In this document: positions 600 through 40,488 of the stretch, piece after piece
How positions within the stretch are numbered: the first letter of the stretch is position 1
Layout of the letters: each line of letters begins with the position of its first letter
Source: Deltaproteobacteria bacterium
Lineage (GTDB): Bacteria > Myxococcota_A > Polyangia > Polyangiales > Ga0077539
Direction: 5' to 3'
DNA length: 64,000 nt
NCBI GenBank assembly: GCA_030694465.1
Contig: JAUXYJ010000103.1
Span: 219,057 to 283,056 of the forward strand
Notes under the pieces: model-generated
What the model was told of the DNA's origin: nothing
Database searches by the model: none
What the model saw: the letters and a program-made list of their open reading frames with translations, nothing else
Program-made: the position numbers and the translations under genes

Positions 600-637
600 A
601 CCCCCACACACTTCACGCGGGTGATAGAGTCTCTCGC

Positions 638-4430: not shown

Positions 4431-4642
4431 GCGAACCAAGAGTCCTTTCGAAAACACTGACAATTTGCTAATCAAATGCCTGCTGTCTCCGCGCAAGACA
4501 CCCACGGGGTGTCCTCGATAGAGATCGTGGCGCGCATGACGCAGGGCCTGTAAAGCGGCGCGAGGATACCCCAACGCACGGTGCGCGCACTGCATTTGCT
4601 CGCCCAAAAACTGCGGCCGACAAAACAATTGTGTCGCGCCGC

Positions 4643-5419
4643 TCAGCGCTCTCGCTGCGTACTCGTGGGGCTCTGCACAGCGAGCTCATCAGCCGCCCCG
4701 AGCACACTCATCGCTTCGCCCGCAACACGTACGGCGCTCTCTGAAACCCCACGCTGCGCGATGGCCCTCGCCTGCGCTTCGTACTCGGGGCCGAGCTGCA
4801 CCGCGAGCCTCCGCACCATGGACGCGTGCACCAACGTCACGAGCGCGTACGCAAAGACCACCACCGCCAAGCCGACGTTGGGCGAAGCCACTCGATTGGA
4901 CACCCAAAACAGCGTGACCAGCGTGAGCGCGCCGCCCACAGACCAAGGCACCAAGCGCAGGGCGGCCTGCGCGTGCTCTTGGCTGCTGCGAAGCAACGCG
5001 GTCATGCGCTCGCTCACCCGCGAGAGCAGGAGCACAATCACCCAAATCAGCGCTAAAAAAGAGAACAACACCGCGTCTCGCATGCGCCCATTCATGAGCA
5101 CGACGATGTGACTCAGAGCGAAGAGCCCTGCGATCGAGCCCGCGAGCCAGAGCACAAACGACACCGCCCGCGGGAGCCACAAGAGCCGTGGCTCTCCCGC
5201 TGCGCGCGAAAACTCTCGCACTTGGTGCACAGACTGCTCTCGAAAGGGCCCGCTCCCTACGCTCGAATCCGACGCAATGTGCACCACACGCGCAGGCCAG
5301 TCGGGTCGATTAGGCGAGGCAAAACGCAGCCTAAACTGACGCAAGCCCGTAAACACCAGCCCACCCACCGAGGTCCCGAGGAGCAAGACCAAGTAGGGCG
5401 TGTACCCGGACAGGTTCAT
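4643..5419 (-). CDS. hypothetical polytopic membrane protein
   Basis: 4-5 hydrophobic helices. The start overlaps the stop of the upstream desaturase by 4 nt (ATGA), suggesting one operon. Confidence 0.5.
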   Translation of the reverse strand: MNLSGYTPYLVLLLGTSVGGLVFTGLRQFRLRFASPNRPDWPARVVHIASDSSVGSGPFREQSVHQVREFSRAAGEPRLLWLPRAVSFVLWLAGSIAGLFALSHIVVLMNGRMRDAVLFSFLALIWVIVLLLSRVSERMTALLRSSQEHAQAALRLVPWSVGGALTLVTLFWVSNRVASPNVGLAVVVFAYALVTLVHASMVRRLAVQLGPEYEAQARAIAQRGVSESAVRVAGEAMSVLGAADELAVQSPTSTQRER

Positions 5420-11260: not shown

Positions 11261-12103
11261 TCAGAGCGGCGTAGGCAGACACGTGCCCATCGAGCACGCG
11301 AACCCATCGGGACAGTTGAGCGAACACGGCCCGCCACAGCGATGAAAACAGTCGCCGTTGGTGCACACACCCGCCGAGCCACACTGCGCGTCGGTGGTGC
11401 ACATTTTTGTGCAAAAACGCCGCATATACATGGTCATTCCGGCGCGAAACCCACGCTCTTGGCAGGTGGTCCCGCTCGCAGCGGTGCACGCGGACTCGTC
11501 GGTGTCGCAGCCCACAAACTGATCAGCGCCGCCAAACCCGCCCTCAGGGGTCGCGGCCGCACAGCGCGCAGTGCCACGGAGATCTTCGAGCCCTACGAGC
11601 GCCCAGCGACGTCGCCCCATTCCGGGGTTCGAGCACGTGCCGTCGTTGCCCACGCCCGCGATCGCGCGGCGACCATTGGTAGTCTGCACAACGACAGAGT
11701 AGCCCGTCGCTTCGTTGATCTTGCAGCCGGGCGTCATCGCATCAAACGTGCAAAACGACGGCATTTCGGTCGTCCCGGCGTTGGCAAAGCTCATCGACGA
11801 GAGCTCACACAGCGGCCGACACATCGGGTTGTTCGGGTTCGGAAAACACCGCCGCCGGTCGCCAATAAAGAACGTCGCGCCCATCTCGGCCGCCGACAAG
11901 CGCCGGTTGCATGCGTCCGCAGCTTCGTCTCCGCCTGCGCTCGTGCAGTGCAAATTAATGCTGTCATTGCAGTCCGAACACGGAGGCCCCGCGTCGGCGT
12001 CCGCGCCTCCGTCCGAGCTCATCGAGCCCGGTCCGCAGGCCGCCAACAAGAGCGTAAGTGAGAGCGTCCAGCCCAATCCCAACGTCGAAGTGCGCTTGGT
12101 CAT
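11261..12103 (-). CDS. Cys-rich lipoprotein, hypothetical
   Basis: Internal start gives MTKRTSTLGLGWTLSLTLLLAAC lipobox. About 30 Cys in the mature part. Confidence 0.55.
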   Translation of the reverse strand: MTKRTSTLGLGWTLSLTLLLAACGPGSMSSDGGADADAGPPCSDCNDSINLHCTSAGGDEAADACNRRLSAAEMGATFFIGDRRRCFPNPNNPMCRPLCELSSMSFANAGTTEMPSFCTFDAMTPGCKINEATGYSVVVQTTNGRRAIAGVGNDGTCSNPGMGRRRWALVGLEDLRGTARCAAATPEGGFGGADQFVGCDTDESACTAASGTTCQERGFRAGMTMYMRRFCTKMCTTDAQCGSAGVCTNGDCFHRCGGPCSLNCPDGFACSMGTCLPTPL

Positions 12104-12167
12104 ACTGGTCGCGGAGCCTACGACTGTGCGCGCCGAGATCCAAACACCTCTGTGCGCTCGTCGTGAT

Positions 12168-12599
12168 TCACATGCCGATTCCGCCCACATCGCGCCCCTG
12201 CGCGACGCAGACAAACGGTCCCCCCGCGGGCTGGTTGTAGCCATAGACAAACACCCCACCCGAGGCCGGACACGTCACCGTGGGCCCCGAGCACGCGCCG
12301 CCACACTGTGCGTCGCCGTCGTTGAGCGCGCTGGTCCCGCGCACGCACGCTTGCTCAGACTGGCTCGCGTCACACACACGGATCGCTGGGGTATTTGCAC
12401 ACGATTGCGCACCGTCTCCGCAGGTCGGGCTGCACGTAAACCGCACGCGACGTCCCGCAGGACAGATCGCAAAGCCCCCTCCGGCCTCGGTCAGCGAGCG
12501 CCATGGCCGCTGCACCTCGGCGTCGGGTGTGGGCATGGGTCCGCATGCACAGAGGCCCAAGAACAACAGCGCCCAAATCTTAGAAGCGCAAGATGTCAT
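12168..12599 (-). CDS. small Cys-rich lipoprotein, hypothetical
   Basis: Signal and lipobox MTSCASKIWALLFLGLCAC. 14 Cys in ~120 aa. Confidence 0.5.
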   Translation of the reverse strand: MTSCASKIWALLFLGLCACGPMPTPDAEVQRPWRSLTEAGGGFAICPAGRRVRFTCSPTCGDGAQSCANTPAIRVCDASQSEQACVRGTSALNDGDAQCGGACSGPTVTCPASGGVFVYGYNQPAGGPFVCVAQGRDVGGIGM

Positions 12600-25617: not shown

Positions 25618-26271
25618 ATGTTCGCACCCCTGTCGTTTGCCGCTGGCGCGCTCACTTGGAGCGCGGCCGAGTACTGCATCCACCGCTTCGTAGGCCACGG
25701 CCCGAGACGCAAACGGCCTGCGAGTCTGCGGGCACAGTTGACGCTTGAGGGCTTGGCAGGCGCGTTTAACGAAGAGCACCTCGCGCACCACAGCGACCCG
25801 CAGTACTTTGCGCCCACGTCGCAGAAGCTCCTCGCGGCCACGGCGGCGATGACCGCCGCGACCCTGGTCGCCTCCGTGCTCTTGGGACCGCGGCGAGGGA
25901 TCGCGTATGGGCTGGGATTTGGGCTCGCGTATGGCGGCTACGAGGTGTTGCACCGGCGGATCCATACGCACGCGCCACGCAACGCCTACGGGCGCTGGAT
26001 GCGGCGGCACCATCTCTATCACCACCACAAGACCCCACGCGCCAACCACGGCGTCACGAGCCCTGTGTGGGACCGCTGGATCAAGACCGAAGAGCAGCTC
26101 GGAACCCAAGAGCCTCTGCGCATCCCGCGCAAGGTCGCCCCTCCCTGGATGCTCGACGCGCAGGGAGAAATCGCAGAGCAATTTGCGGCAGATTATGTGC
26201 TCGTAGGCAGCGCCGCGAAGAGCAAACCGGGCGCTGAGACGCCTGGCTCTGCCTCGCCTAACTCGCGCTAA
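25618..26271 (+). CDS. fatty acid hydroxylase superfamily (sterol desaturase-like) membrane enzyme
   Basis: His boxes HRFVGH, HLAHHSD, HRRIHTH, HHLYHHH in a ~215-aa protein. Directly downstream of the TetR gene. Confidence 0.6.
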   Translation: MFAPLSFAAGALTWSAAEYCIHRFVGHGPRRKRPASLRAQLTLEGLAGAFNEEHLAHHSDPQYFAPTSQKLLAATAAMTAATLVASVLLGPRRGIAYGLGFGLAYGGYEVLHRRIHTHAPRNAYGRWMRRHHLYHHHKTPRANHGVTSPVWDRWIKTEEQLGTQEPLRIPRKVAPPWMLDAQGEIAEQFAADYVLVGSAAKSKPGAETPGSASPNSR

Positions 26272-26494: not shown

Positions 26495-29488
26495 ATGAAA
26501 AAAACGCCAAGAATGCGCTCCCTTGTATTGCTGACGGTCGTCGCGGTGACCGCCGTTGGATGTCGTCGCTCACGCCAGACGGACGCGAACCAACGCGCGA
26601 CGGCCCAAGCCGATCGCAACACGTTGCTCGACCGCCAGGCGCAGCTCGCGCCCTCGGCGGTTGGGACCCAGCAGCGCTCGGAGGCCGACCACTACGAGGT
26701 GCCCGTTGTGCAGGGTGACCGGCTGGTGGTGACCGTCGAATCGACAGCGTTTGATCCCGTGCTTGAGGTCGTGCTCCCGGATGGATCGTCGCGCATCAAC
26801 GACGACTACCAGGGGAGCCGTCAGCGCTCACAGCTCACGCTCGCAGCGACCACCGCAGGGGCGCTCAAGGTCCGCGTGCGAGCCTATCGGGGCAACACCG
26901 GCGGCGCTTACCACGTGCGGGTCGCGCGCTCGACCGTCGCGGCCGTGGCCAACACCAACGCGCTCTCACCGCAGTATGCGCAGGCGCTCAACGCGAGCAA
27001 CGCAGTCAACGGGCTGGGCGCGCAGGGCGCTGCGTTTCTGGACTACCTGCAGCCCTCTGAGGCGACGACGCATCACCGTTTGCCCGCGGCATTCGCGGCT
27101 CAGACCGCGCTGACTTCGGGACGGGACGTCCGCGGGACTCTCGCCGAGGGCGACACGGTGTTGCCGAGCGGCGAGCTCGCGGACGCGTACACGTTTACGG
27201 GACAAGTCGGCGAGATGGTCGTCTTGGGCATGAACTCAACCGCGTTTGACTCGTACCTGATCGTTCAGACTCCGTCGGGGCGCGTGCTCGCCGACGACGA
27301 CTCGGGCGGAACGCTCAACTCCCAGCTCACCCTCGCCATCACCGAGCCCGGCGAATACCGCGTGATCGCAGCCAGCGCGCGGCCCGCCGTCAACGGCGCC
27401 TATGAGCTCAAGTTTCAACCGACCCGACGCACGATGAACCAAGAGTGGTACGGACAGCCAGGGCAGCCCGCACAGCCGGGTCAGCCGGGTCAGCCGGGTC
27501 AACCTGCACAGCCCGCGCCTCCGGTGGCAGCCACGGTGCAGCCAGGGACGCTCGCGACCGGCGATCAGACGCTGCGCACGGGTGAATTCGTGGACCGTTA
27601 TCAGTTCAACTGGCCCGTGGGCTCGACGGTGCGTGTGCGCCTAGAGAGCAGCGCGTTTGATCCGTACGTGATCGTGCGCGCTCCGTCGGGAGCCCAGCAA
27701 GACAACGACGACGCCTCGCCCTCGGACCGCAACTCGCAGCTTGACTACGTCGTGCGTGAAGCGGGCCAGCACACCGTGATGGTCACCAGCTATCGGCCCG
27801 GCGAGTCGGGTGCATACCAGCTCACCGTCGGCGGCGGCGCAGGGCAGCCCGGCGCGCTCCCGATCGCTCCGATGCCTTCGCAGCCCACGCAGCCCACGCA
27901 GCCTTCGCAGCCTTCGCAACAGCCCGGAGCGCTCGGCGCACAGACCGTCCAGGGAGTGCTCGCGCAGGGTGATGCGACGCGTCCATCGGGCGAATTTGCT
28001 GACAGTTTCCAGTACACGTTTCCTGCCGGTGCGGCCGTACGACTCGAAGCTACGAGCGAAGCGCTCGACACCTTCTTGATCGTGCGATCGCCCTCGGGAC
28101 AAGAGCAGCAGAACGACGACGGCATCCCCGGAACGACCAACTCTGCGCTGAGCTTTGTCACAAGCGAAGCGGGCGCATACACCGTCACCGTGAGCTCGTA
28201 TCGCGCTGGCGAAACAGGCGCGTACGCGCTCTCGGTGCAAGCCCCCGGGATCACAGGCGGCACGCAGCCCACCGCGCAGCCCAGCTTGCCCACCGCCATC
28301 CCAGTGCAACCCTCGCAACCCTCGCAACCCTCGCGGCCCGCAGGGCAACGCGAGATCCGCGGGACCCTCGCGCGGGGTGACACTACGCTGCAAACGGGCG
28401 AGTTTGTCGACACCCACGCGATGCAGTTTCGCCCCGGCGAGAGCGTACGTCTGCGCTTGGACAGCGCTGCGTTTGACACGTATCTCATCGTGCGAACACC
28501 CGGTGGACGTCAGCTCGACAACGACGATTTGGTCTCGGGCAATACGAACTCTGGCTTGGATATTCCGTCGGCAGAGGCTGGCAACTACCAGATCCGCGTG
28601 ACGAGCTATCGCCCCAACGAGACGGGCGAATATACGCTGCGGATTGACCACGGAGCCGCAGGCTCGCTCCCCGCGGACACCGCGCAGCCTTCGCAACCCG
28701 GACAACCCTCGCAGCCGTCTCAGCCCGGGCAGCCCTCCATCCCCAGCGTCGCCGGAGGAGCCCGTGTTTGGGGCGTATTTGCAGGGATTACGGACTATCC
28801 CGCAGGCGTCAACGACCTCCCCGAGTGCGCCAACGACGCGACCAAGCTCGTCGAGACACTGACCGAGCGTGGGTTGCTCACAGCCGAGCGTCGCGTGCTG
28901 CTCACCGACAGCCAAGCCACGGTCGAGAACGTGCGCCAAGCGATCCGACGCATCGGACCGCAGCTGGGTCCACAAGACGTCTTTGTCTTTTTCTACTCAG
29001 GTCATGGCGGTCGGACCAGCGGAGGATCACGCGACGCACGCGAGCTCGACGGCATGGACGAGTACCTCTATCTCTACGATGGTCGCTTGATGGACGACGA
29101 GATGGGGACGCTCTTTGACAGCGTCCGCGGGAGCACCAGCATTCTCGCGTTGGACTCTTGTTTTGCAGGCGGATTTGCCAAAGACGTGATCACGCGCCCC
29201 GGCCGTATCGGGCTGTTCTCGAGCGAAGAAGACGTCACCAGCTCGGTCGCACAACAGTTTCGCGCGGGTGGTTATCTCTCGCACTTCTTGCGCTTGGGCA
29301 TGGGCGGCGAGGCCGACCGTGATCCGCGAGACAACGCGCTCACCGTGGGCGAGCTCACGCACTATGTGTGGCGCCAGTTTGCGCAAAACGCGGCCAACGT
29401 GGACCAAGGCGAAGGCGCCTATCAGCACCTCGTCGTAGACCGCGGCGCGGTGCCCGTCGGCCAAGTGCTCTGGACCTACGGACGCTGA
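26495..29488 (+). CDS. lipoprotein with five PPC-like repeats and a C-terminal caspase-like (peptidase C14) domain
   Basis: Signal/lipobox MKKTPRMRSLVLLTVVAVTAVGC. Five ~80-aa repeats (D.Y.F....G..V...L.S.AFD.YL.V..P.G....DD.......S.L......G.Y.V.V.SYR....GAY.L.V) separated by QP(G/S)QP linkers. C-terminal FFYSGHGG (His) and LDSCFAGG (Cys) give a caspase-type dyad. Confidence 0.8.
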   Translation: MKKTPRMRSLVLLTVVAVTAVGCRRSRQTDANQRATAQADRNTLLDRQAQLAPSAVGTQQRSEADHYEVPVVQGDRLVVTVESTAFDPVLEVVLPDGSSRINDDYQGSRQRSQLTLAATTAGALKVRVRAYRGNTGGAYHVRVARSTVAAVANTNALSPQYAQALNASNAVNGLGAQGAAFLDYLQPSEATTHHRLPAAFAAQTALTSGRDVRGTLAEGDTVLPSGELADAYTFTGQVGEMVVLGMNSTAFDSYLIVQTPSGRVLADDDSGGTLNSQLTLAITEPGEYRVIAASARPAVNGAYELKFQPTRRTMNQEWYGQPGQPAQPGQPGQPGQPAQPAPPVAATVQPGTLATGDQTLRTGEFVDRYQFNWPVGSTVRVRLESSAFDPYVIVRAPSGAQQDNDDASPSDRNSQLDYVVREAGQHTVMVTSYRPGESGAYQLTVGGGAGQPGALPIAPMPSQPTQPTQPSQPSQQPGALGAQTVQGVLAQGDATRPSGEFADSFQYTFPAGAAVRLEATSEALDTFLIVRSPSGQEQQNDDGIPGTTNSALSFVTSEAGAYTVTVSSYRAGETGAYALSVQAPGITGGTQPTAQPSLPTAIPVQPSQPSQPSRPAGQREIRGTLARGDTTLQTGEFVDTHAMQFRPGESVRLRLDSAAFDTYLIVRTPGGRQLDNDDLVSGNTNSGLDIPSAEAGNYQIRVTSYRPNETGEYTLRIDHGAAGSLPADTAQPSQPGQPSQPSQPGQPSIPSVAGGARVWGVFAGITDYPAGVNDLPECANDATKLVETLTERGLLTAERRVLLTDSQATVENVRQAIRRIGPQLGPQDVFVFFYSGHGGRTSGGSRDARELDGMDEYLYLYDGRLMDDEMGTLFDSVRGSTSILALDSCFAGGFAKDVITRPGRIGLFSSEEDVTSSVAQQFRAGGYLSHFLRLGMGGEADRDPRDNALTVGELTHYVWRQFAQNAANVDQGEGAYQHLVVDRGAVPVGQVLWTYGR

Positions 29489-29586: not shown

Positions 29587-30489
29587 TCAGTGAGCCAAGC
29601 GATACGTCGCGAAGAGCCCTGTCACGAGCGTGACAAAGATCGTCAGGGCGACGAGAAATCCCGTGATCATCGCAGACGAATCCGACGTGAGCCCAAAGCG
29701 CTTGCGCATCCATGGGCGGACCATCGCCGTGATCGTCCCTGCAATGGCCAGCCCCACAAGCACACCCCAGAGCCCTGGCCTCACACAACGCAAGAGCGCG
29801 GGGCCGTCGAGATCCCCCTGACAACGCGAGCCCGACAAGACGCTAAAATACAGGCCAAGCCCCAGCATAATCACCAGCAAACTCGCCGCGAAGAGCCCCA
29901 TCATGGGCCCAAGCAGCGGGTGATTGCGGTGTTTGTCTCCGGTCGCGACGACCCGCGGAACCCCGCGCGCGAGCGCCGCCAATGCGCTCAGCACGGTGCG
30001 CCCCGGCGTGGGATCTGTCGGCGACGAGACAAACCTCGTGACGCTCACGGATAGCGAATAGTCAGGCCAAACGTCGATCTCGACGCGCGGGATGTCCATC
30101 GAGAGCAGCGCCAAGACGGCCGCGCGGACCTCGTCGTTGAGCACCTGCGCGAGGACCTCGTTGCGCGTCGGCGAGTCGATGTACACCGCAGCATCAAAGC
30201 GCTCATCGCCGGTCTGAAACTCAGTGTTTACGCCCGCGCGCTTTGCCTCGCGGTCTGCCGAACGCTCAACCGTTGCCAAGATATTCATGGGGCGGATCGC
30301 ACGGATTTCGGGCTGCGCGCGGTAGCCCTGCGCGCTCGCGCTTGACCTCGCCGCGCCGTCGTACGCGGTCGTGAGCGTGAGCTTAGGGTTGTCCTCGCCC
30401 TCGAAGCTCACGGCGATGTGCACGCCCTCCCAGACCAGCGCAAAGTCGTCGCCCTGCGCCCCTGCGAGCAGGCGAAGCTCGGCAATCAT
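29587..30489 (-). CDS. hypothetical membrane protein (soluble ~200-aa domain plus three C-terminal TM helices)
   Basis: ORF directly downstream of the giant surface-protein gene on the same strand. Start at MIAELRLLAG, or 30570. Confidence 0.5.
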   Translation of the reverse strand: MIAELRLLAGAQGDDFALVWEGVHIAVSFEGEDNPKLTLTTAYDGAARSSASAQGYRAQPEIRAIRPMNILATVERSADREAKRAGVNTEFQTGDERFDAAVYIDSPTRNEVLAQVLNDEVRAAVLALLSMDIPRVEIDVWPDYSLSVSVTRFVSSPTDPTPGRTVLSALAALARGVPRVVATGDKHRNHPLLGPMMGLFAASLLVIMLGLGLYFSVLSGSRCQGDLDGPALLRCVRPGLWGVLVGLAIAGTITAMVRPWMRKRFGLTSDSSAMITGFLVALTIFVTLVTGLFATYRLAH

Positions 30490-30615
30490 CGCGTTCTTGG
30501 GGTCGTCGTTCACAAAGCAGATCTTAGTCCTGACCCAGGACACGAGAAATCGATCCAGGCCAGTGATCACTCACCGCCGACCGATGCCCCGCTCACGAGT
30601 GCCCCCGCTTCGTGA

Positions 30616-33600
30616 CTACGCGCTGCGGCGCGCTTGTGCGCGGCGGCGCTGTCGCACGACCACCAAGGCGAGCGCACTCAGAGCGAGCCCCGTCTTGGAT
30701 GCGGGCGAGCCCTGCGCAGGTGCGCTGCCAACCACGCGACACGCGCACGCGCCGTCGCCGCTCAGGACACCGTTGAAGCCGCCTGCATCCGGACGAACCG
30801 CGCCGTCCATCGCGACTGCGCCGTCCATCGCGACTGCGCCATCGTTGATCGCTGCGTCGCCGAGGGCTGCGTCCATGACGCCACCATCGACACCGCCACG
30901 CGGTACGCAGCGCTGCGCCATGACGTCGCACTGGTGCGTCGGTGCGCAGTCAGAGTCCATCGTGCAGCCGCACATGCCCGCTGCGCCTGCCATCGGGCCA
31001 ACACAGGCGGTGCCTGCCATGTCCGAGCGGCATCCGTTGGCGTTGCCGCCTGGGCCGACGGTGCAGACCACGCAGGTCATCGCAGAACACACCGGCAAAT
31101 TTGCAGGGCACTCTGGATCGGTCGTGCAGCCCATGCGCGGTGCGCAGCGGCCGACAGCGATGTCGCACACGGGCGTCGCGCCCATGCACTGCGTGCTGTT
31201 GACGGCAGAGCACTGGCCACACGCGCCGGTTGGCTGACACGCGGGGTTTGCGCCGCCGCACTCGGTGTCCATCGCGCAGCCGCGACACACGCCCGCTGCG
31301 ATGTCGCAGACCGGAGCGCTCCCGCCGCAGTCTGCGTTGCTCATGCAACCCGAGCGGATGCTGAACGTGCTCATGGTGCTCGCCATGTTGCCCGCAGCGT
31401 CGCGCGAGGTCGCGGTGACGGTGTGCATTCCGTCCATGAGAATCCCCACGGTTGGTGCGCTCCAGCGTCCCATGGCGTCTGCCATCACGACGATGGGAGC
31501 GCCGCCGTCCACGATCACAGTGACCACAGCGTTTGGCTCGGTGGTGCCTGTGATCGTGGGGGTGCGATCGTTGATGGTGGATGCGTTCGCGGGGCTGACG
31601 ATCACGATGGCTGGGACCGTCGCGTCGATCACAAACGTGGTCGTCGCGCGTCCGGTCATCCCACCAGACATCACCGTGGCGACCACGGTGGTGCTCCCCT
31701 CGGGGAGGGGCATGGTAGGTGTCAGGGTCCAGATGCCCATCGCGTTGGCGGTCACGGTGACCGGAGCGCCACCGTTGATCGACACTTGGACCATCGCGCC
31801 TGGATCCGCTGTGCCCGTGATCACAGGCATGCGGTTCGAGGTGGTCGAGCCGTTGGGGGGCGTGGTGATCACGACGTTGAGCGAGCTCGTGTCGATCGTG
31901 AAGGTGCTCATGGTGCTCGCCGTGTTGCCGGCTGCGTCACGTGCAGTCGCCATCACAAGGTGCATCCCGTTGGCGAGCGCTGCGGGTGGAGTGACCGACC
32001 ACAGACCGAGGGCGTCCGCGGTGGTCATCAGCACGGTGCCGCCGTCGAGGGTCACAGTGACCTGCGCGCCGGGCTCGGTGGTGCCCGTGATGTTCGGTCG
32101 AACGTCACGGATGGTGCTTCCGTCCACGGGGGTGTTGATCACGATCGCCGGAGCGCGCGTGTCCACCGTGAAGCTCGTCGAGGACATGGCCGTTCCGCCC
32201 ATGGGGTTGGTCGTGGTGGCGACCACAACGTGAGGTCCATCCACCAGCGGAATCGCTGGTGTCAGGGTCCAGTTGCCCATCGCGTCCGCGGTCACAGTGA
32301 CAGGGACGCCACCGTCCACGATCACGACGACCATCGCGCCTGGGTCTGCACGACCCGAGATCACCGGGCGCGGGTTCGACGTCACGCTCGCGTTAGGCGG
32401 CGTGGTGATCGTCAGCGTGGGCGCAGTGACGCTCACGGTGAAGGTCGACATCGCGTTGGCGGTGTTGCCCGCTGCGTCCGTCGCAGTTGCTGCGACCGTG
32501 TGCGGGCCGTCCATCAACGCGACGAGCGTCGGGATGGACCAGTTGCCCATCGCGTCGGCCATCGTGACCACGGGCGCGGCGCCATCCACCACAACGCTCA
32601 CACTCGCGTTGGGCTCAGTGCGTCCCGAAATCGTCGGCATGCGGTCCGAAGTTGTGGCTCCGTTTGCAGGCGAAACGATCGTGATCGCGGGCGCGACCGT
32701 GTCCACGGTGAAGGTCGTGGTTGCGGTCGACACATTGCCCGCAGCGTCCACCGTCCGGGCGCTCGCCGTGTGAGGCCCTTCGCTCAGCGGCGCAGCGGGT
32801 GTCAGGGTCCAGTTGCCCATCGCGTCCGCAGTCACGTTGACCTGAGCGCCACCATCGAGGCTCACGCTCACGGTCGCGCCAGGGTTAGCGCGGCCAGTGA
32901 CGGGCGGGCGGTTGTTGCGCGTCGAGCTGCCGTTCGGGGGCGTGACGATCGTGAGCAGCGGCGCTGCCGTGTTGATCGTAAAGCGCGTGGTCGCGCTCGC
33001 GCTGTTGCCCGCTGCATCCGTTGCAGTTGCAGTTGCGCTGTGGCTACCGTTCATCAACGGCGCCGCGGGTGTGACGGTCCAGTTGCCCAACGCGTCCGCG
33101 GTGGTCATGAGCGCGGGTCCACCATCGATCGAGACCGTGATGATCGCGCCGGGCTCGCTGCGTCCAACGATCGGCGGCTGGTTCATCGCGACCGTGCTGC
33201 CATTGGCAGGGCTCGTGATGACAATCACCGGCGCAGTCGCGTCCACGATAAACGTGGTCGTCGCGCTCACCGAGTTGCCCGCGCTGTCGGTCACGCGAGC
33301 AAGCACGCTGTGCATTCCGTCAGTCAAATTACTGACTGGAATGAGGGTCCAGTTGCCCATCGCGTCTGCCGTCACGGTGACCGCGGGGGCTCCGTCAATC
33401 GACACTTGGACCATCGCGCTGGGGGTCGTGCGTCCCGTGATCGGCACGCGGCGGTTGTTCGTCGTGCTGCCATCAGCAGGCGTCACAATCGTGATCGTCG
33501 GCAGGGTCGCGTTGACGGTAAACGTCGTGCTCGCCATCGCCGTGTTGCCCATCGCGTCACGCGCGGTCGCGATCGCGGTGTGCATGCCGTTCATCAGGGC

Positions 33601-35862
33601 CATCGGTGGGGTCACCGACCAGTTGCCCATCGCGTCGGCAGTGGTCATCACGCTGGCGCCGCCATCGATGCTCACGGTCACCGTCGCGCCTGGCGCGGTG
33701 GTCCCCGTAATCGCAGGGCGGTTGCTGGTCGTTGTTGAGCCGTTCGCCGGCGCGGTGATCGCGAGGTTAAGACTGCGGATGGTCACCGGAGCGCCACCCA
33801 CAATGGTGGTCTCAGTGAGATTGGTACCGTCGTTGTAGGTCACGACGATGTCGCTGTCGTAGTCCGGTGGCGACTGCGGGATCGCGCTGCCCGCACGGGC
33901 GTTGAAGCGAATGGTAGCTCGTGCGCCAGCGGCAAGCGTTGATGCACCAAAAGGCCAGCTCAATTGCTGACGGTTCTCTGTGGTGTACGGCACCAACGTC
34001 GGAGGTGCCGCGGCGGTCGGAGCCGCTGCGGGCCCGCCGGTCACCATGCTGCTGCCGACGACAAAGTCAAAGCGCGAGTTAATTCCCATGCCGTTGTTGG
34101 TCGCCAACAGCGCATGGACGTTGATCGCGGTCGCAGGGCGTGTGCCGCTATTGATGATGGTCAGCGTGTACTGTGTGGTCCCCGCAACTGGAATGGTCGC
34201 AGGATTTGCAGTGAGATTGAGCAAGAGGTTTGCTTGGTCACCCACAGTGACCACCGACGTTGACTGCGCCGTGGGGTTGAGCCCCGTCGCCGCGAGGCGC
34301 GATGTGCTGATCAGCACGTCGCCATTTCCGCCGGCAATTCGCACGTCATACTCGACAACGCCGCCCTCACCCGTCGCGAGCGAGGCCACCGTGCGAAAGG
34401 TCATGGTCGCCCCGCTGCCTGGGCACGCAGGTGTGCTGGGCAAGAGCGCAGGGCCGCTCACAACCACTGCGTTTGAGACAGGGCATCCGCCGGCCAAACG
34501 CGGGGGCAACACCACCGAGATGATCGTGTTCGGCAGCGGGATCCCCCCCATGTTCTGGTAGGTGATGCGGTAGCGCAGGAGCGCGCCAGCAGGGACCAAC
34601 GAGCCCGTTGCGGGCACGCCGTTGACCGAGACCAAGGTGTGCGCCAAGAGCACGCGCGAGTTGGTCGCAGCCACGCTGGGCACGTGATAGCGCCACGAGT
34701 TGTCTTGACCGCGCTCGCCCGCCGCAGTAGCCGAATCGCCACCAAAGACCTCTGAGTTCACGATGTATCCGCTCGCCGGTGGGGCAGCCGTCACCCGCAC
34801 CGTGAGGCGCACATAGCGGAGCGTGCCGACCACCAAGCGACCCACAGCCCAACGCACTGCGTTGGTCCCCGCAGGGAGCGGGGCTGCTGCCGAGACCGCG
34901 CGGCCCAGCGTGGTGTAGTTGCCATCAACAAAGGTACCGCTGCTGCCATCTGCATTGATCGCAGGGGTGCCCGCGGCGCTACCGATGCGCGAGCCCTGCG
35001 CAGCGATGCGCTGCCACGGACCTACGTTGCCGGTGTTGTCCAGGGGGCTCGCCGAGTCAGGACCTGCGACGGCCGAGCCCGACATAAAGGGAGCCGCACC
35101 ACGACCATCACCGATCGCGAGCGCGACAGACTTGGGGTTGGCGAGCGCTGCCGCTGCTGCTGCGGTCGATCCAAACGCGTTGGTCTGGTCGGCGTCCCAC
35201 AGGTTGTGCGTGGTCGCACGCGCCTGACCAATAATGGGATTGAGCTGTCCAGCGCCTGTGGGGTTGATGTTGTATCCGTTGGTCCCCTGGCGAGCGATCC
35301 CGTCGGTGTCATTGAGCACAACCAGCGCCGTGCGCGCATTCGTCGAGAAGAAGATCCCGGTGTCTGCGTAGATCTGCGCCATACGAGCCGTGCAGTTCGC
35401 CGGTGTCTTCATCGCCGCGGTGCAGCGCGCGGCGTAGGTCGCGTTGGTGGTGACAAATCCCGTGTAGCCACCTTGGCCACGGTTGCCCCAGCCGTCGGAC
35501 ATGGGCCCCGGAAGCTGCGGTGTGGTAATCACAAAACCGCCAGCGCCGTCGGGCGCTACGTAGTCCGCGCCGATGACCTGCAGCCCTGCCGGGATATAGC
35601 CCGTCACGTACCCACCAGCACCGACGGTGGCGCCGTTGGCCACCGGAGTAAACTCGATGATGTAGCTCAGCGTGTCGCCGAGGCGGATGCCCGGCATCGC
35701 CGACATCCCGCGCGAGGCCAAGAGTGACGCGGTCGCTGGGTCAAAATAAATGGACGTATTGACTTGTCCTACGGAGTGTGCTTCGGCCGTTCGATAGACG
35801 ACCAGCAGGGAGAGTATGAGCGTCCAAAACGCGACGGCATATCTACGAAAACGTTGTTCCAT
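30616..35862 (-). CDS. giant (1748 aa) cell-surface protein: N-terminal beta-rich domain, 9 tandem Ig-like repeats, Cys-rich module, MYXO-CTERM-like sorting tail
   Basis: Signal MEQRFRRYAVAFWTLILSLLVVYRTAEA. Nine ~89-aa units (P.NGST....RP.ITG.TEPGA.V.V..DGG......ADAMGNW...P...L..G.H...ATA.DAAGN.....T.FT.D). Then ~25 Cys. The tail is GACACRVVGSAPAQGSPASKTGLALSALALVVVRQRRRAQARRSA, i.e. Cys, Gly/Ser, a TM helix and an Arg cluster. Confidence 0.8.
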   Translation of the reverse strand: MEQRFRRYAVAFWTLILSLLVVYRTAEAHSVGQVNTSIYFDPATASLLASRGMSAMPGIRLGDTLSYIIEFTPVANGATVGAGGYVTGYIPAGLQVIGADYVAPDGAGGFVITTPQLPGPMSDGWGNRGQGGYTGFVTTNATYAARCTAAMKTPANCTARMAQIYADTGIFFSTNARTALVVLNDTDGIARQGTNGYNINPTGAGQLNPIIGQARATTHNLWDADQTNAFGSTAAAAAALANPKSVALAIGDGRGAAPFMSGSAVAGPDSASPLDNTGNVGPWQRIAAQGSRIGSAAGTPAINADGSSGTFVDGNYTTLGRAVSAAAPLPAGTNAVRWAVGRLVVGTLRYVRLTVRVTAAPPASGYIVNSEVFGGDSATAAGERGQDNSWRYHVPSVAATNSRVLLAHTLVSVNGVPATGSLVPAGALLRYRITYQNMGGIPLPNTIISVVLPPRLAGGCPVSNAVVVSGPALLPSTPACPGSGATMTFRTVASLATGEGGVVEYDVRIAGGNGDVLISTSRLAATGLNPTAQSTSVVTVGDQANLLLNLTANPATIPVAGTTQYTLTIINSGTRPATAINVHALLATNNGMGINSRFDFVVGSSMVTGGPAAAPTAAAPPTLVPYTTENRQQLSWPFGASTLAAGARATIRFNARAGSAIPQSPPDYDSDIVVTYNDGTNLTETTIVGGAPVTIRSLNLAITAPANGSTTTSNRPAITGTTAPGATVTVSIDGGASVMTTADAMGNWSVTPPMALMNGMHTAIATARDAMGNTAMASTTFTVNATLPTITIVTPADGSTTNNRRVPITGRTTPSAMVQVSIDGAPAVTVTADAMGNWTLIPVSNLTDGMHSVLARVTDSAGNSVSATTTFIVDATAPVIVITSPANGSTVAMNQPPIVGRSEPGAIITVSIDGGPALMTTADALGNWTVTPAAPLMNGSHSATATATDAAGNSASATTRFTINTAAPLLTIVTPPNGSSTRNNRPPVTGRANPGATVSVSLDGGAQVNVTADAMGNWTLTPAAPLSEGPHTASARTVDAAGNVSTATTTFTVDTVAPAITIVSPANGATTSDRMPTISGRTEPNASVSVVVDGAAPVVTMADAMGNWSIPTLVALMDGPHTVAATATDAAGNTANAMSTFTVSVTAPTLTITTPPNASVTSNPRPVISGRADPGAMVVVIVDGGVPVTVTADAMGNWTLTPAIPLVDGPHVVVATTTNPMGGTAMSSTSFTVDTRAPAIVINTPVDGSTIRDVRPNITGTTEPGAQVTVTLDGGTVLMTTADALGLWSVTPPAALANGMHLVMATARDAAGNTASTMSTFTIDTSSLNVVITTPPNGSTTSNRMPVITGTADPGAMVQVSINGGAPVTVTANAMGIWTLTPTMPLPEGSTTVVATVMSGGMTGRATTTFVIDATVPAIVIVSPANASTINDRTPTITGTTEPNAVVTVIVDGGAPIVVMADAMGRWSAPTVGILMDGMHTVTATSRDAAGNMASTMSTFSIRSGCMSNADCGGSAPVCDIAAGVCRGCAMDTECGGANPACQPTGACGQCSAVNSTQCMGATPVCDIAVGRCAPRMGCTTDPECPANLPVCSAMTCVVCTVGPGGNANGCRSDMAGTACVGPMAGAAGMCGCTMDSDCAPTHQCDVMAQRCVPRGGVDGGVMDAALGDAAINDGAVAMDGAVAMDGAVRPDAGGFNGVLSGDGACACRVVGSAPAQGSPASKTGLALSALALVVVRQRRRAQARRSA
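31348..33750. repeat. array of ~267-bp tandem coding repeats (9 Ig-like units of the giant gene)
   Basis: Protein-level periodicity of 89 aa. It also creates a 1034-aa stop-free antisense frame. Boundaries are approximate. Confidence 0.7.
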
Positions 35863-36036
35863 GTTGATTCCTTGGCAACTTTACAAAACGAGCAATGACC
35901 AAGTTCGCGCGGGCCCCGCTTGACGTCAACGGAATATCTGGATTCAACCCATTTATTCTCTAAAACAGCAATGTGAGTCGAGGTCATCGTCAAGCATTGT
36001 TCAGCAATGACACAGCGAAGCTCGTAGGCTCTCGCG

Positions 36037-36603
36037 ATGCACTTCGCCCGCACGCTGTTGTCTGCCTCGCTCGTCACCCTCCCCGCGCTCACGCACGCCC
36101 AGTCAACGAGCTCACGGTCTCTCGAGACCGCCACCGCTGCACCCCGACGAGAGCACGCCATCCAAGCCGACCTGGGCCTCGCCGTCGTGGGTCTCGCGTA
36201 CGAAAACGTGATGAGCCGACACCTCGCGCTTCAGGTCGAAGGCCACGTGTTTGGCACCTGGTTTTGGCCCATTTTTTCGGGACTCCCGAACTTCACCGGC
36301 GGAGGCATCCAGACGCGATTGTCTGTCTTTTTGCTAGGCGATGCACCCAACGGAGTCTACCTCGCTGCCTTCGCACGCTTCGACGTCGTCGGCGCGCAAG
36401 CCCGAGACCAGAGCCACGGTCTCGGCTTCGGAGGCTCTGTCGGAGGCTTCGCGGGTTGGTCCTTTGCGATCGCAGACCGCTACAACCTCCGCGTCGGTGC
36501 CGGTGTGCAATACATGGACTATGAGGTCCCCACAGCGACCTCGCGCGTAGTCGCACGCACGGTCTACCCCGCGATCGATCTTGTACTGGGTTATCGCTGG
36601 TGA
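36037..36603 (+). CDS. outer-membrane beta-barrel protein, hypothetical
   Basis: Signal MHFARTLLSASLVTLPALTHAQ. Alternating amphipathic strands. C-terminal aromatic motif LVLGYRW. Confidence 0.5.
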   Translation: MHFARTLLSASLVTLPALTHAQSTSSRSLETATAAPRREHAIQADLGLAVVGLAYENVMSRHLALQVEGHVFGTWFWPIFSGLPNFTGGGIQTRLSVFLLGDAPNGVYLAAFARFDVVGAQARDQSHGLGFGGSVGGFAGWSFAIADRYNLRVGAGVQYMDYEVPTATSRVVARTVYPAIDLVLGYRW

Positions 36604-37229
36604 TCTCGCGTAGGGCCTGCGCGCCCTCCGAGCGCGTCGCGGGTCAAAAGCGAGTACGCCAGCCCCACATCCACGCTCAGCAAGACCCGCCCCGCGTGCA
36701 CATCGTTCGAGGCCGTGTGAAGCCACTGATGCGAGACCTCAGCCTCAATCACGCCGCGCAAGAACCCTACGGCGACCCCGTTGCGCATCCCTACCGCGAG
36801 GTCTCCGTTGGCGCTCCCCAGCACAAACCGCGGCGACCACCGTAGCGCGATCAAACCCACGCCCACGCCTGGTGAGACCCCGAGCATCGCGAGATGCCAC
36901 GCTTGGCCCGAAGAGAGCTCCCACGCGTAGCCACCCTCCAAGAGCAGGTCAAACACCGGCTCTTGGCTCGCCAACACCAGCCTCCGTGCGCCCAGCGTGA
37001 GCTCGCCTGAGACTCCGAGCGGCCCCGCAGGTGCGAGCCACGACGCGCCCACGCTCGCACGGAGGCTCGCAAACCACTGCGCAGAGACGCGCTCTGCCGG
37101 AGTGACCGCAGGCGGGGTGACCCACACGGCCTCTGCGCGCGAGGACAAACAAAACAGCGCACAAGACGCTGCAATAACACTCACCAAAGAGCGCGACCGT
37201 GATCGCTTAGCGCTTCGCGTGTGGTCCAT
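36591..37229 (-). CDS. hypothetical secreted protein
   Basis: N-terminal signal, Gly/Ala/Leu-rich strand-like segments. Overlaps the previous gene by 13 nt. Weak call. Confidence 0.35.
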   Translation of the reverse strand: MDHTRSAKRSRSRSLVSVIAASCALFCLSSRAEAVWVTPPAVTPAERVSAQWFASLRASVGASWLAPAGPLGVSGELTLGARRLVLASQEPVFDLLLEGGYAWELSSGQAWHLAMLGVSPGVGVGLIALRWSPRFVLGSANGDLAVGMRNGVAVGFLRGVIEAEVSHQWLHTASNDVHAGRVLLSVDVGLAYSLLTRDALGGRAGPTRDHQR

Positions 37230-37240
37230 CGAGGGCTCTC

Positions 37241-38110
37241 TTATACGCGCCGTCGCTTCTGAGATCGCCTTAGCGCGTCCATCTCAGAGGGGCGCCCAAA
37301 GATCGCAGTGAGCTTGGCCCGCGCCCCCTTGAAGCACCCCACATCGATCGCGATCGCGACCCACTCGTGCACCGCGATCCACAAGGGATTGAAGCTCTTG
37401 ATCGGCGTCACGATTCCGTACGTTGGGCGCTCACTCTCGCGAACAAAGGTGCCAAACCATCGGTCCCACACGATGAAAATCCCGCCGTAGTTCTTGTCGA
37501 GATACTGCGCGTTGCGTGCGTGGTGTACGCGATGACTCGAGGGCGTGCTCATCACCGCCTCGAACCAAGGGGGCATACGCCCAACGGCCTCGGTGTGCAC
37601 CCAGTACTGGTACAACAGCGACAGCCCGATCTGAAACGTCACCCAGCTCGGAGTAAACCCTAACCAGCACAACGGCAGCCAAAAAACCCAGCCCCCCGAG
37701 AGCCAGCTCGTCCACGACTGCCTCATCGCGGTGCCAAGGTTGTAGTGCTCGGAGGAGTGATGATTGACGTGCCCCGCCCAGAAATATCGCACCTCGTGGG
37801 AGGCGCGATGAAAGCCGTAGTACGCGAGGTCTTCGAGCAGCACCAACGCCACGTAACTCTGAGCGCTCATCGTGATGTCCGAGAGGCGATGTGCGTAGAC
37901 GAAGCTCATCGCGGCATGCACAACGGGCGCGATCGCAGCGCCAACGAGCATGTTTCCGATGCCCATCGCGATCGATGATAGCCAGTCTTTTCGCTCGTAT
38001 TGTGCGACAGCGCGCGCACCCCGTGCCCGCAACCACACGGCCTCGAGAGCCATGAGCAGCGCGAAGAACGGGATCGCGTAAAACACCAAATACGGCAGCG
38101 CGTTGGCCAT
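37241..38110 (-). CDS. sterol desaturase / fatty acid hydroxylase family membrane protein
   Basis: His boxes HRASHE, HVNHHSSEH, HRVHHARN. Start MANALPYLVFYAIPFFALLM. The ORF upstream of 38110 is Arg-rich and unsupported. Confidence 0.7.
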   Translation of the reverse strand: MANALPYLVFYAIPFFALLMALEAVWLRARGARAVAQYERKDWLSSIAMGIGNMLVGAAIAPVVHAAMSFVYAHRLSDITMSAQSYVALVLLEDLAYYGFHRASHEVRYFWAGHVNHHSSEHYNLGTAMRQSWTSWLSGGWVFWLPLCWLGFTPSWVTFQIGLSLLYQYWVHTEAVGRMPPWFEAVMSTPSSHRVHHARNAQYLDKNYGGIFIVWDRWFGTFVRESERPTYGIVTPIKSFNPLWIAVHEWVAIAIDVGCFKGARAKLTAIFGRPSEMDALRRSQKRRRV

Positions 38111-38120
38111 CAGCGCGTGC

Positions 38121-40346
38121 TCAGTCGAGCTGTGTGTAGAGCGTGTAGAGCCCACCAGCGCCCGAGAGTGCGTCGACAAAAATGCGATACGTCCCAGGGT
38201 CGAGCGTGACGTCGAGCGTTGTCCGCGTGCCAAGCGTGCACGTCGAAGTCGTCGAGACCGGCGACATACCCGGGCACGCGTCATCACGGGTCACATAGAA
38301 CACATTGAGAAACGCCGTATCGAGCACCGCGGTCAGCCGGCGTCGACGGTCGAGCGTGAGCTGATAGACCGCGTCAGGACCGGTCGCGTTGGCACACGTC
38401 CCACGGTAATCGTGCGCGAGGCCCACAAGCGTCGCCCGAAAGAGCGCGCGGTCCGCGGTGATCGTCCGCGCGGTGGCGCAGGTGTCATTTCCGGTGGGCG
38501 TGGTCACTGGGACCAGGTCGTAGGTGCGTAGCGTGACCTGCACATCTGCAGGCCGAAGCGTCTTGAGCGTCACGAAGTAAGTCCCAGGATCGAGCGCGAG
38601 CGCGATCAACCGCGTCGTGTTCGAGTTGGTCGTGCAGAGCCGCTCATTGCCGCGCTCAACGGGACAGACACTGTGCAGCGCGAGGCCGATAAAATCTGAG
38701 CTCGCGCCTGCCGCGGTCAAGATCACGTCGCGTCGATCGGTGAGCGTAAACTGCATCACCGCGTCACGACCGCTTGAGATGCAGGTCGGTCGATAGTCGT
38801 TCTCGAGCGCGCCGGTCGAGACCATCAGCGGCGCGGTCTCGGTCAGGGTGAGCGGGGATGCGCACGTGTCACCCGTGGGCGGAGGGGTCGGATCCGAGAA
38901 GTTCACCGAGAGGGTAAAGAGCAACGGATCAAAGGCCTCGACGGCCACGTAATAGCGCCCCGCGGGCAGCGAATAGCTTCGCATCTGGATGCTCGAGCCC
39001 GTCTCACACCGGAGCGTCACCGGTGTCCGCTCACAGCTCGACAAGAGCGAGAGCACGAGGTTGTCGGTGCGCGCACCCGCGAGCGAGAGCGAGACGTTCT
39101 GCGGGCTCGTGAGCTCAAAAGTGTAGAACGCGTCGTTGGCAGAGCCGCCGCAGCGGGTCGAGGCATCGTCGCGTAACCCAATGAGATCACTACGAAATGT
39201 GCCTCCCATGGGGACCGGAATCTCCGTCGCCATCGCGCACACATCGTTGGCCGGCTGCGGCGTGGCAGGCGTGAGCTGCACGCTGAGATCCACCACACCG
39301 CGAACGCTCGTCGCCACGATGATGAAGTAGTCCCCTGCCGGCAATGAGTGCCTCCGCACATTCGCCGGAAACCCCGAGTCGCACTCAAGCGTGTTGCTCG
39401 GGTCCGTGCCGCCACACATGCTCTGCACCGCCACCGAGGTCACTCCCGTCGGCGAGCTCACCGAGATCGCGATGTCCCGGGGCTCCGTCAGTCGCAAGCG
39501 CGCCACACCGTCACGCATCAAGCGTCCGCCACAAGGCAGCGGGTAGTCCGCCGGAGACGCCGACAGGTCCATCGTAAAGATCCCCCCACGCGAGACATCG
39601 AGCGGATCGTCACAGCGGTCGTTCGGTGCGCGGCGACAACCTCCCGGCTCCATCGCGTCGATCGCGCCGTTGCAGTTATTGTCGATCCCGTCGTCGCAGA
39701 TTTCGGGCAGCGTCGATGCGACCCGTGGGTTGCTGTCGTCGCAATCGCGACCCACCCAACACACCAGCATCCCGCTGTCGTTGATCCCCGCCTCTGCGCC
39801 GCTGTCGCCGCATGTGCGGTCATAACAGTGGTCGTCTGGGTCGCCGTCGCCGTCGCGATCAAGTGGGCGTGAGATGCACGTGCGGGTCATCTCGTCGCAG
39901 CGATCCGACGTGCAAACTTCCCCGTCGTTGCAGTTGATGGGCTCTCCGCGGATGCATCCTCGGCGGCTGTCACACACCTCTTGGCCGTTGCAATAGACGC
40001 GGTCGTCGCACATGTCGGCGTTGGGGAGGTTTTCGCAGCGACCGTTCGCGGCACAGACGTCGGTTGTGCACTCGATCCCGTCGTCGCACATGGACGAGCG
40101 TGTGCACGCGCGACCGAGCGTCGCGGTGTCTTCTCGAGGCTCTTCGACCGTGTCGATCACCACCGCGTCGATCCCGGTCGCGTCCAGCGCGCTCGCGTCT
40201 TCGCCCGCGTCCTCACCAATGCGCGGTGGGGGCGAGCACGCGAGAAGCAAACAGACCAACGAAGAACAGAGCGCCAGCCATAACGGCGAGAGCCGACCAA
40301 GACGACAAAGAGCGGCTTCGGAGATGGGCAAAGGATCCTCCTGCAT
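38121..40346 (-). CDS. lipoprotein with Myxococcus-type Cys-rich repeat, MopE-like Cys/Asp metal-binding motifs and four PPC-like domains
   Basis: Start MQEDPLPISEAALCRLGRLSPLWLALCSSLVCLLLAC. CDDGIECTTDVCAANGRCENLP..CDDRVYCNGQEVCD..CNDGEVCTSDRCD, then DRDGDGDPDDHCY and CDDGIDNNCNG, then four repeats of DAFYTF....G.Y.V.V..........L.V type. Confidence 0.75.
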   Translation of the reverse strand: MQEDPLPISEAALCRLGRLSPLWLALCSSLVCLLLACSPPPRIGEDAGEDASALDATGIDAVVIDTVEEPREDTATLGRACTRSSMCDDGIECTTDVCAANGRCENLPNADMCDDRVYCNGQEVCDSRRGCIRGEPINCNDGEVCTSDRCDEMTRTCISRPLDRDGDGDPDDHCYDRTCGDSGAEAGINDSGMLVCWVGRDCDDSNPRVASTLPEICDDGIDNNCNGAIDAMEPGGCRRAPNDRCDDPLDVSRGGIFTMDLSASPADYPLPCGGRLMRDGVARLRLTEPRDIAISVSSPTGVTSVAVQSMCGGTDPSNTLECDSGFPANVRRHSLPAGDYFIIVATSVRGVVDLSVQLTPATPQPANDVCAMATEIPVPMGGTFRSDLIGLRDDASTRCGGSANDAFYTFELTSPQNVSLSLAGARTDNLVLSLLSSCERTPVTLRCETGSSIQMRSYSLPAGRYYVAVEAFDPLLFTLSVNFSDPTPPPTGDTCASPLTLTETAPLMVSTGALENDYRPTCISSGRDAVMQFTLTDRRDVILTAAGASSDFIGLALHSVCPVERGNERLCTTNSNTTRLIALALDPGTYFVTLKTLRPADVQVTLRTYDLVPVTTPTGNDTCATARTITADRALFRATLVGLAHDYRGTCANATGPDAVYQLTLDRRRRLTAVLDTAFLNVFYVTRDDACPGMSPVSTTSTCTLGTRTTLDVTLDPGTYRIFVDALSGAGGLYTLYTQLD

Positions 40347-40488
40347 CCACAACGGACGCGACTGTGACGCTGTGCAGTATGGCAGATGCGCCGCAGGCCG
40401 CGCGAGTCTATCGATCTGGACGAATGGGCCCGCGGGACACAAACGGGCGCCGCAGAGCCCACAGGTTGGTGATAGAAAGTCCGTCGCT

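Follow-up and report, generated by a model that had tools for sequence, protein, structure and literature searches.

A probable stalked, adhesin-like surface protein with a MYXO-CTERM-like C-terminal tail in a Polyangia-type myxobacterium

We studied a giant gene in a 64-kb stretch of DNA (64,000 nucleotides [nt] of contig JAUXYJ010000103.1; hereafter, the window). The gene is an intact minus-strand open reading frame (ORF) at 30616-35862 coding for 1,748 amino acids (aa). We consider it likely that its product is a stalked, adhesin-like, MYXO-CTERM-type cell-surface protein of a Polyangia-type myxobacterium, and that the gene directly downstream, which codes for a protein with three transmembrane (TM) helices, is an unrelated neighbor. 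As to the lineage, this neighboring NCBI protein (P0001, “hypothetical protein Q8Q09_28085”) is annotated as coming from a “Deltaproteobacteria bacterium” metagenome-assembled genome (MAG).

Architecture of the giant protein and its C-terminal tail

At the N terminus of the protein, a signal peptide precedes a head of 377 aa, and then come two CLIPPER/DUF11-like domains and nine Big_13 units, a module with 24 cysteines (Cys), and a tail with Cys residues, a TM helix, and an arginine (Arg) cluster (Table 1). The GC content at third codon positions (0.79) agrees with a real gene in a window of ca. 64% GC. The N terminus reads MEQRFRRYAVAFWTLILSLLVVYRTAEA, followed by HSVGQ, which is a Sec signal peptide, and in an alignment of 70 homologues, conservation of the mature protein sets in right behind an AxA-type site. 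An earlier reading of this DNA made without database searches (here, the sequence-only reading) had proposed an ORF of 1,748 aa with a signal peptide, which both translation and homologue alignment confirmed, as well as a large N-terminal region of ~690 aa, which we found to span 697 aa. Fibrillar adhesins are defined in architecture by a signal peptide, a nonrepeat head at the distal end, a stalk of repeated domains, and an anchor in the cell envelope, all of which this protein has, and in this sense the giant protein is a further example of an already known kind of protein and not a new kind.

Table 1. Features of the giant gene and of the gene downstream (positions in the window; aa numbering of the giant protein)
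Feature	Position	Strand	Basis
Signal peptide, aa 1-28, MEQRFRRYAVAFWTLILSLLVVYRTAEA, predicted cleavage AEA/HS	35779..35862	-	Translation, 70 homologues
Head domain, aa 29-405, predicted beta-sandwich core with large insertions	34648..35778	-	Cross-phylum conservation, AlphaFold2
CLIPPER/DUF7927-like beta-sandwich 1, aa ~406-540, divergent, without lysine	34243..34647	-	Weak Pfam matches
CLIPPER (DUF11)-like beta-sandwich 2, aa ~541-697, subthreshold, without lysine	33772..34242	-	PF01345
Nine tandem Big_13/Ca_tandemer Ig-like units, aa 698-1506, mutually diverged	31345..33771	-	Pfam, NCBIfam
Cys-rich module, aa 1507-1652, resembling the TraA Cys-rich stalk	30907..31344	-	NF033759 match
Gly/Ala/Asp-rich linker, aa 1653-1699, with 18-bp tandem (GAVAMD x2.3)	30766..30906	-	Tandem Repeats Finder
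MYXO-CTERM-like tail, aa 1700-1748: GACAC, 16-residue spacer, TM helix GLALSALALVVV, RQRRRAQARR	30619..30765	-	TIGR03901.2
Stop codon of the giant ORF	30616-30618	-	
Intergenic gap, 102 nt, without terminator-like hairpin	30514..30615	-	
Adjacent 308-aa gene: predicted cytoplasmic alpha/beta domain and three TM helices	29587..30513	-	NCBI protein, family consensus

The tail reads GACAC, then RVVGSAPAQGSPASKT, then GLALSALALVVV, and then RQRRRAQARRSA and the stop codon, and the translation contains all the elements that the sequence-only reading had listed (Cys motif, glycine/serine spacer, TM helix, and basic end), with a spacer of glycine, serine, alanine, and proline. The 49 residues aligned to the whole TIGR03901.2 profile (positions 1 to 34) with 17.3 bits and an E value of 0.0047, below the curated cut-off of 20, and longer C-terminal fragments gave 14.6 to 15.3 bits. 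The low value is due to the spacer, which is 5 residues longer than in the profile: the same tail minus five spacer residues reached 23.5 bits. The match is order-specific and Cys-dependent, as with both Cys changed to serine the score dropped to 12.1 bits and the motif part of the alignment was lost, while six shuffles of the tail gave no match at an E value of ≤10. The verified MYXO-CTERM peptide of TraA (PMC11980579, Fig. 1F), used as a control, scored 20.6 bits. At an E value of ≤10, an NCBIfam scan of the tail returned nothing but MYXO-CTERM, and PEP-CTERM, GlyGly-CTERM, JDVT-CTERM, and other sorting signals were discarded as candidates.

The author of TIGR03901 describes this 34-residue model as highly divergent and in want of lineage-specific versions and curatorial review, and the signal itself as lying at the extreme C terminus and consisting of a Cys motif (often with two Cys), a TM helix free of charged residues and proline, and an Arg cluster (10.1101/2023.06.07.544157). 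The host is expected to be a member of the Myxococcia or Polyangia that encodes a myxosortase (MrtX, MrtC, or MrtP). All of the descriptive features given by Haft and by Guo et al. are present in the giant protein, including the N-terminal signal peptide on the same polypeptide, and only the numerical cut-off is missed. With its full-profile alignment, the tail supports the surface protein proposed by the sequence-only reading. Judging from its sequence, it is very probably the known MYXO-CTERM anchoring signal, and we read it as a lineage variant with a spacer of 16 residues versus 13 in TraA.

The closest parallel is TraA of Myxococcus xanthus (TIGR03901; PMC11980579), which likewise has a Sec signal peptide, a Cys-rich stalk (a 26-bit match here), and a tail with two Cys, a long spacer of serine, threonine, alanine, proline, and glycine, a helix without charge, and a cluster of Arg, the two tails scoring close to each other (17.3 bits here and 20.6 in TraA). 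In contrast to TraA, the giant protein has neither a PA14-like variable domain nor a TraB-like neighbor, and it carries nine Big_13 units and a head conserved across phyla.

Most of the stalk is built of immunoglobulin (Ig)-like units. Both Pfam Big_13 (PF19077; 368.3 bits, cut-off of 27, E value of 3.5e-112) and NCBIfam Ca_tandemer (NF033510; 312.4 bits, cut-off of 50) matched in nine stretches, far above their thresholds. The sequence-only reading had counted nine near-identical 89-aa units and expected a recombination-prone locus of variable length. The nine tandem units stand, with a period of 90 aa (one unit has 89), but they are well diverged from each other, with pairwise identities of 40 to 64% in protein (mean of 51%) and 53 to 67% in DNA (mean of 60%). 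No 270-nt array was detected over them by Tandem Repeats Finder, and the longest exact word common to two units was 32 nt, values on which near-identical repeats and a collapsed assembly were rejected. Given this divergence, an artificial collapse or expansion of the repeat number, which had been named as a possible objection, is unlikely, and frequent unequal recombination is not to be expected. Length variation is plausible just for the only true tandem DNA repeat, an 18-bp unit coding for GAVAMD, with 2.3 copies at 30797-30840 in the linker, whose copy number may vary in the population. An independent assembly of a near-identical strain (Logan contig L001 from SRR13727538; contig positions 1-214) breaks inside this repeat.

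Thus, with nine ~90-aa units matching both models (312 and 368 bits), the protein resembles the Ca2+-stabilized tandem Ig adhesins (NF033510; Big_13), from which it differs by its Sec signal peptide, its MYXO-CTERM-like anchor, and the divergence of the units (mean identity of 51%). The giant RTX adhesins of the Ca_tandemer class carry a type I secretion signal, which is lacking here.

The two beta-sandwiches between head and Ig-like units are more divergent. The first gave weak Pfam matches to DUF7927 (aa 417 to 530) and DUF7619, while its homologues carry PF25549, PF24595, and PF24346 at the same position; the second matched PF01345 on aa 548 to 657 with 21.9 bits, below the gathering cut-off of 24.6, and homologues of the N-terminal region do carry this domain. 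PF01345 (DUF11) has been renamed CLIPPER and is an isopeptide-stabilized stalk domain of fibrillar adhesins (Costa et al., 10.1101/2025.04.25.650565). The giant protein shares with these adhesins the order of head, stalk, and sorting signal, the position of CLIPPER/DUF7619/DUF7927-type domains straight behind the head, and homologues annotated as DUF11 or TIGR01451 repeat proteins. Unlike them, it has a stalk that is mostly Big_13 and contains no lysine (Lys), and its CLIPPER-like matches remain subthreshold. The whole protein has only 3 Lys in 1,748 aa (0.2%), at aa 152, 244, and 1723, and none between aa 406 and 1506, which makes Lys-Asn isopeptide bonds impossible in that part. Three other predicted secreted proteins of the window, at 26495-29488 (+), 38121-40442 (-), and 2217-4685 (-), have 0.1 to 0.6% Lys, the nonsecreted ones have 1.3 to 3.0%, and the median of the head-region homologues is 1.55%. 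Predicted secreted proteins here are thus strongly depleted in Lys.

Behind the Ig-like units, positions 307 to 446 of the TraA model NF033759 matched the Cys-rich module with 26.3 bits (E value of 2.6e-6). There are 24 Cys between aa 1506 and 1652, counting C1506, so the 25-Cys module of the sequence-only reading exists with one residue fewer. Since full TraA membership has a cut-off of 750 bits and only the Cys-rich region matched, we regard the module, from its sequence, as a stalk type held in common with TraA and not as part of a TraA orthologue. Together with the tail (C-terminal 247 aa), it had no homologue at an E value of ≤1e-3 in a set of 5.8 billion proteins. Three more proteins of the window have Cys-rich regions, at 221-2086 (+), 11261-12274 (-), and 38121-40442 (-). 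One has a Stig1-like domain, another no Pfam match, and a third both MopE metal-binding and PPC domains; a MYXO-CTERM-like end is absent from all three.

These features are consistent with a processing route modeled on that of M. xanthus TraA (Cys lipidation, cleavage by a CPBP-family myxosortase, and surface delivery through the type II secretion system). The Sec signal peptide would be cleaved between AEA and HS, and the TM helix and Arg cluster of the tail would hold the protein in the inner membrane. There, a Cys of the GACAC motif would be lipidated, and a myxosortase, an intramembrane protease of the CPBP family, would cut off the C-terminal helix. The lipid-anchored protein would then be carried to the cell surface via the type II secretion system, where the TraA-like Cys-rich module, the nine Big_13 units, and the two CLIPPER-like domains would build a long stalk presenting the conserved head to a ligand.

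Several observations weigh against a MYXO-CTERM-type adhesin. Besides the tail score under the cut-off, a full-length scan against NCBIfam listed no TIGR03901 at an E value of ≤1, and no CPBP/myxosortase gene was found among the scanned ORFs of the window. No second protein in the window ends in such a tail, and for this reason a lineage-specific MYXO-CTERM model could not be built. The CLIPPER-like matches stay below threshold, and the head is unusually conserved across phyla (45 to 60% identity) for an adhesin tip. The giant protein is absent from the 5.8-billion protein set, although the adjacent three-TM protein is present there; the best match to its N-terminal region in this set had 50% identity.

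The head domain and alternative readings

Homologues of the 697-aa N-terminal region (185 matches, with identities of 35 to 50%) came from MAGs of Acidobacteria, Chloroflexi, Nitrospirae, Myxococcota, and Polaromonas. Most of them measure 750 to 1,200 aa and bear annotations as DUF11 or TIGR01451 repeat proteins, and the region is thus a module of wide distribution. In none of the 120 listed matches did the precomputed Pfam domains include Big_13, so that, among these matches, only the protein described here joins this N-terminal region to a Cys-rich stalk, nine Big_13 units, and a tail of MYXO-CTERM-like type.

Within this region, residues 29 to 405 stand out as a head, with 45 to 60% identity over the 70 aligned homologues and 45 invariant columns. 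No Pfam or NCBIfam model covers them. The AlphaFold2 model built with the homologue alignment had a predicted local distance difference test (pLDDT) score of 93.3 and a predicted template modeling (pTM) score of 0.93. Foldseek searches of this model against the PDB gave nothing at an E value of ≤1e-3, and a PDB sequence search with the head was equally empty. Therefore, the head is predicted to be a pilin-like sandwich carrying large insertions, without a solved counterpart.

The alignment of the head family suggests an undescribed bond. Lys10 (first strand) and Asn375 (last strand) occur together (56/4 versus 2/7; Fisher P value of ~1e-5, not corrected for phylogeny), and with the invariant Glu343 beside them, this pattern suggests an isopeptide triad of the CnaA type in most members of the family. 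The protein of the window has Ile10 and Arg375 instead, and its head would therefore have lost the putative bond. The exchanges at the homologues' putative isopeptide Lys positions in this protein are K10 to I and K380 to H.

From the architecture of the protein, the head may act as the adhesive tip of the stalk. Given its conservation, we also weighed whether it could be a catalytic or metal-binding module, which would turn the giant protein into a surface enzyme or binding protein. The cross-phylum conservation with 45 invariant columns speaks for such a role, as do the first mature residue, directly at the signal-peptidase site, which is His in 62 of the 70 sequences and Asp in the other 8 (followed by S-V-G-Q), and the invariant H191 and E343, with H365 nearly so. 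However, classical histidine braces are not known to tolerate a His-to-Asp exchange, and we consider a surface enzyme or binding protein of this sort unlikely. We likewise give only a small share of probability to the broader idea that the head is an undescribed domain, i.e., a new conserved ligand-binding, metal-binding, or catalytic module, found across Acidobacteria, Chloroflexi, Nitrospirae, Betaproteobacteria, and Myxococcota and mounted by these lineages on different stalks and anchors. In any case, the head is the most interesting loose end of this analysis.

A second alternative concerns the other end of the protein. The tail could be a plain C-terminal TM anchor that no myxosortase sees, in which case the protein would remain tethered to the inner membrane and its body would lie in the periplasm. 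This would agree with the HMM (hidden Markov model) score under the curated cut-off, with the distance between Cys motif and helix (5 residues longer than in the profile), and with the lack of a myxosortase gene in the window. On the other hand, the profile match depends on residue order and on the Cys; the verified TraA tail is also long-spaced (13 residues) and barely above the cut-off; and a stalk of ~1,700 aa would be hard to fit in the periplasm. We consider a plain anchor unlikely and retain the reading of the tail as a MYXO-CTERM variant.

The three-TM gene downstream

The sequence-only reading had described a same-strand gene immediately downstream of the giant gene, encoding a soluble domain and three TM helices, and had proposed that it could be a dedicated partner (a chaperone or an anchor). 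The gene and both parts of its product are as described, 102 nt behind the giant ORF, whereas the start codon most likely is not the ATG at 30489 but a GTG at 30513 (308 aa), a start supported by the NCBI protein as well as by MxDDPES, the consensus of the family. The AlphaFold2 model (pLDDT score of 94.2) consists of a soluble domain and three TM helices, and the cytoplasmic domain is predicted to have a fold like that of TtfA, CCDC47, and type III chaperones. Sequence identity to TtfA (mycobacterial trehalose monomycolate transport factor; PDB 6t84), CCDC47, and the class I type III chaperones is just 4 to 13%, and, unlike these proteins, the one described here has three C-terminal TM helices, which carry an RGRSxS loop and a pair of conserved Cys. 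There was no match to any family model, and a PDB sequence search with the family gave chance TM matches only.

A word-indexed search found only the protein itself, and an exhaustive HMMER search was needed to detect relatives. It yielded 278 cluster representatives, nearly all of ~300 to 320 aa and aligning from end to end, so by sequence the protein belongs to a real, unnamed family. The family alignment (A1) has ten invariant residues (R65, R74, P75, E83, E98, F106, D107, Y111, R130, and D147), the motif E[HF]QTGDxxFD, a Cys pair conserved between TM1 and TM2, and the RGRSxS loop between TM2 and TM3. All the full-length relatives with a taxonomic label came from Polyangia-type myxobacterial MAGs. 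A genome scan run with a 12-sequence alignment added detail, with nine full-length relatives, of which seven bear the labels Labilithrix, Polyangiaceae, Byssovorax, or Myxococcales and the other two belong to a single “Deltaproteobacteria bacterium” MAG. Two paralogues of the three-TM gene (L006 and L010) are present in MAG LNEO01. The core of the soluble domain (aa ~63 to 147, with QTGDxxFD) was also found in Rheinheimera, Planctomycetota, Bdellovibrionota, Gemmatimonadota, and other groups (L011 to L029 and L048 to L057), and the soluble domain is therefore broader in distribution than the full-length family of the Polyangia.

The partnership was examined at 23 loci with full-length relatives, 9 from the genome scan, 13 from a metagenome scan, and 1 from a look-up. 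A tblastn search with the giant protein gave no hit at 1e-4 at any of the 23, and the three-TM gene was absent from three loci that carry head homologues. The genes upstream of the relatives varied: peptidase S9, DUF2330, DUF2169 with pentapeptide repeats, unrelated others, or a divergent gene. For instance, in two of the closest relatives, a Labilithrix locus (L002, 5839-7989) and its near-identical twin (L033, 2-280), a prolyl oligopeptidase (Peptidase_S9) gene on the same strand lies directly upstream of the three-TM gene. At another locus (L003, 6445-7947), a DUF2330 protein encoded directly upstream of a family member ends in a Cys/TM/basic tail with a weak score for PVV-CTERM (17.9 bits, cut-off of 27) and none for MYXO-CTERM.

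Thus, the two genes do not form a conserved module (0 of 23 and 0 of 3 loci), and the dedicated-partner reading is left unsupported. As a partner, the three-TM protein would use its chaperone-like domain to keep the preprotein, or the Arg-rich tail of it, at the inner membrane until processing. The common strand, the short gap without a terminator-like hairpin, the origin of all taxonomically labeled full-length relatives in MAGs of a phylum that uses MYXO-CTERM, and the Cys/TM/basic tail encoded in front of the L003 relative would all agree with this. Against it stand the missing adjacency at either set of loci, the differing upstream genes, the L003 tail's weak score for PVV-CTERM instead of MYXO-CTERM, and a fold likeness at only 4 to 13% sequence identity, and we consider a dedicated partner improbable. 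The three-TM gene may be cotranscribed with the giant gene, but in our reading it is an unrelated neighbor whose family is a separate one of Polyangia-type MAGs. That this protein founds a membrane-anchored, chaperone-like family handling C-terminally sorted proteins seems less likely than the head being a novel module. Both the uncharacterized head and the chaperone-like family are worth following up.

Finally, a role of the giant protein in outer-membrane exchange, as a kin-recognition receptor like TraA, is very improbable: the Cys-rich module does match TraA model region 307 to 446, the tail has a TraA-like long spacer, and a second gene follows as traB follows traA, but the score is 26 bits against a cut-off of 750, no PA14-like variable domain was detected, neither TraB nor OmpA matched the downstream gene, and the head, 45 to 60% conserved in Acidobacteria, Chloroflexi, Nitrospirae, and Betaproteobacteria, groups in which outer-membrane exchange is not known, behaves in the opposite way to a recognition domain that is polymorphic. 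TraA membership was rejected on these defining tests.

Genomic surroundings and implications

Upstream of the giant gene, a small protein with a signal peptide is encoded divergently at 36037-36603 (+). It ends in LVLGYRW, has no Pfam match, and looks like an outer-membrane beta-barrel. The promoter of the giant gene thus has 174 nt available between the two. An Rfam scan of the window returned no family at threshold, with only a chance-level snoRNA (small nucleolar RNA) match in 35700-36800, and a riboswitch or other RNA upstream of the giant gene was discarded, as no Rfam family reached threshold there. On the other side, the gene at 26495-29488 (+), convergent with the three-TM gene, codes for a protein of 997 aa in which two PPC (prepeptidase C-terminal) domains are combined with a Peptidase_C14 domain of caspase type. 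Two genes of the fatty acid hydroxylase family, at 25618-26271 (+) and 37241-38287 (-), flank the locus ca. 11 kb apart.

Taken as a stalked surface protein of MYXO-CTERM type, the giant protein would extend the MYXO-CTERM repertoire by a variant with a long spacer. Such tails fall short of the curated cut-off by ~3 bits, and the MYXO-CTERM counts for uncultured Polyangia are probably too low. The protein would also indicate that the stalk and anchor of a myxobacterium can bear a head common to many phyla of soil and freshwater. Two uncharacterized families, the conserved head and the TtfA/CCDC47-like three-TM protein, may merit Pfam entries of their own.

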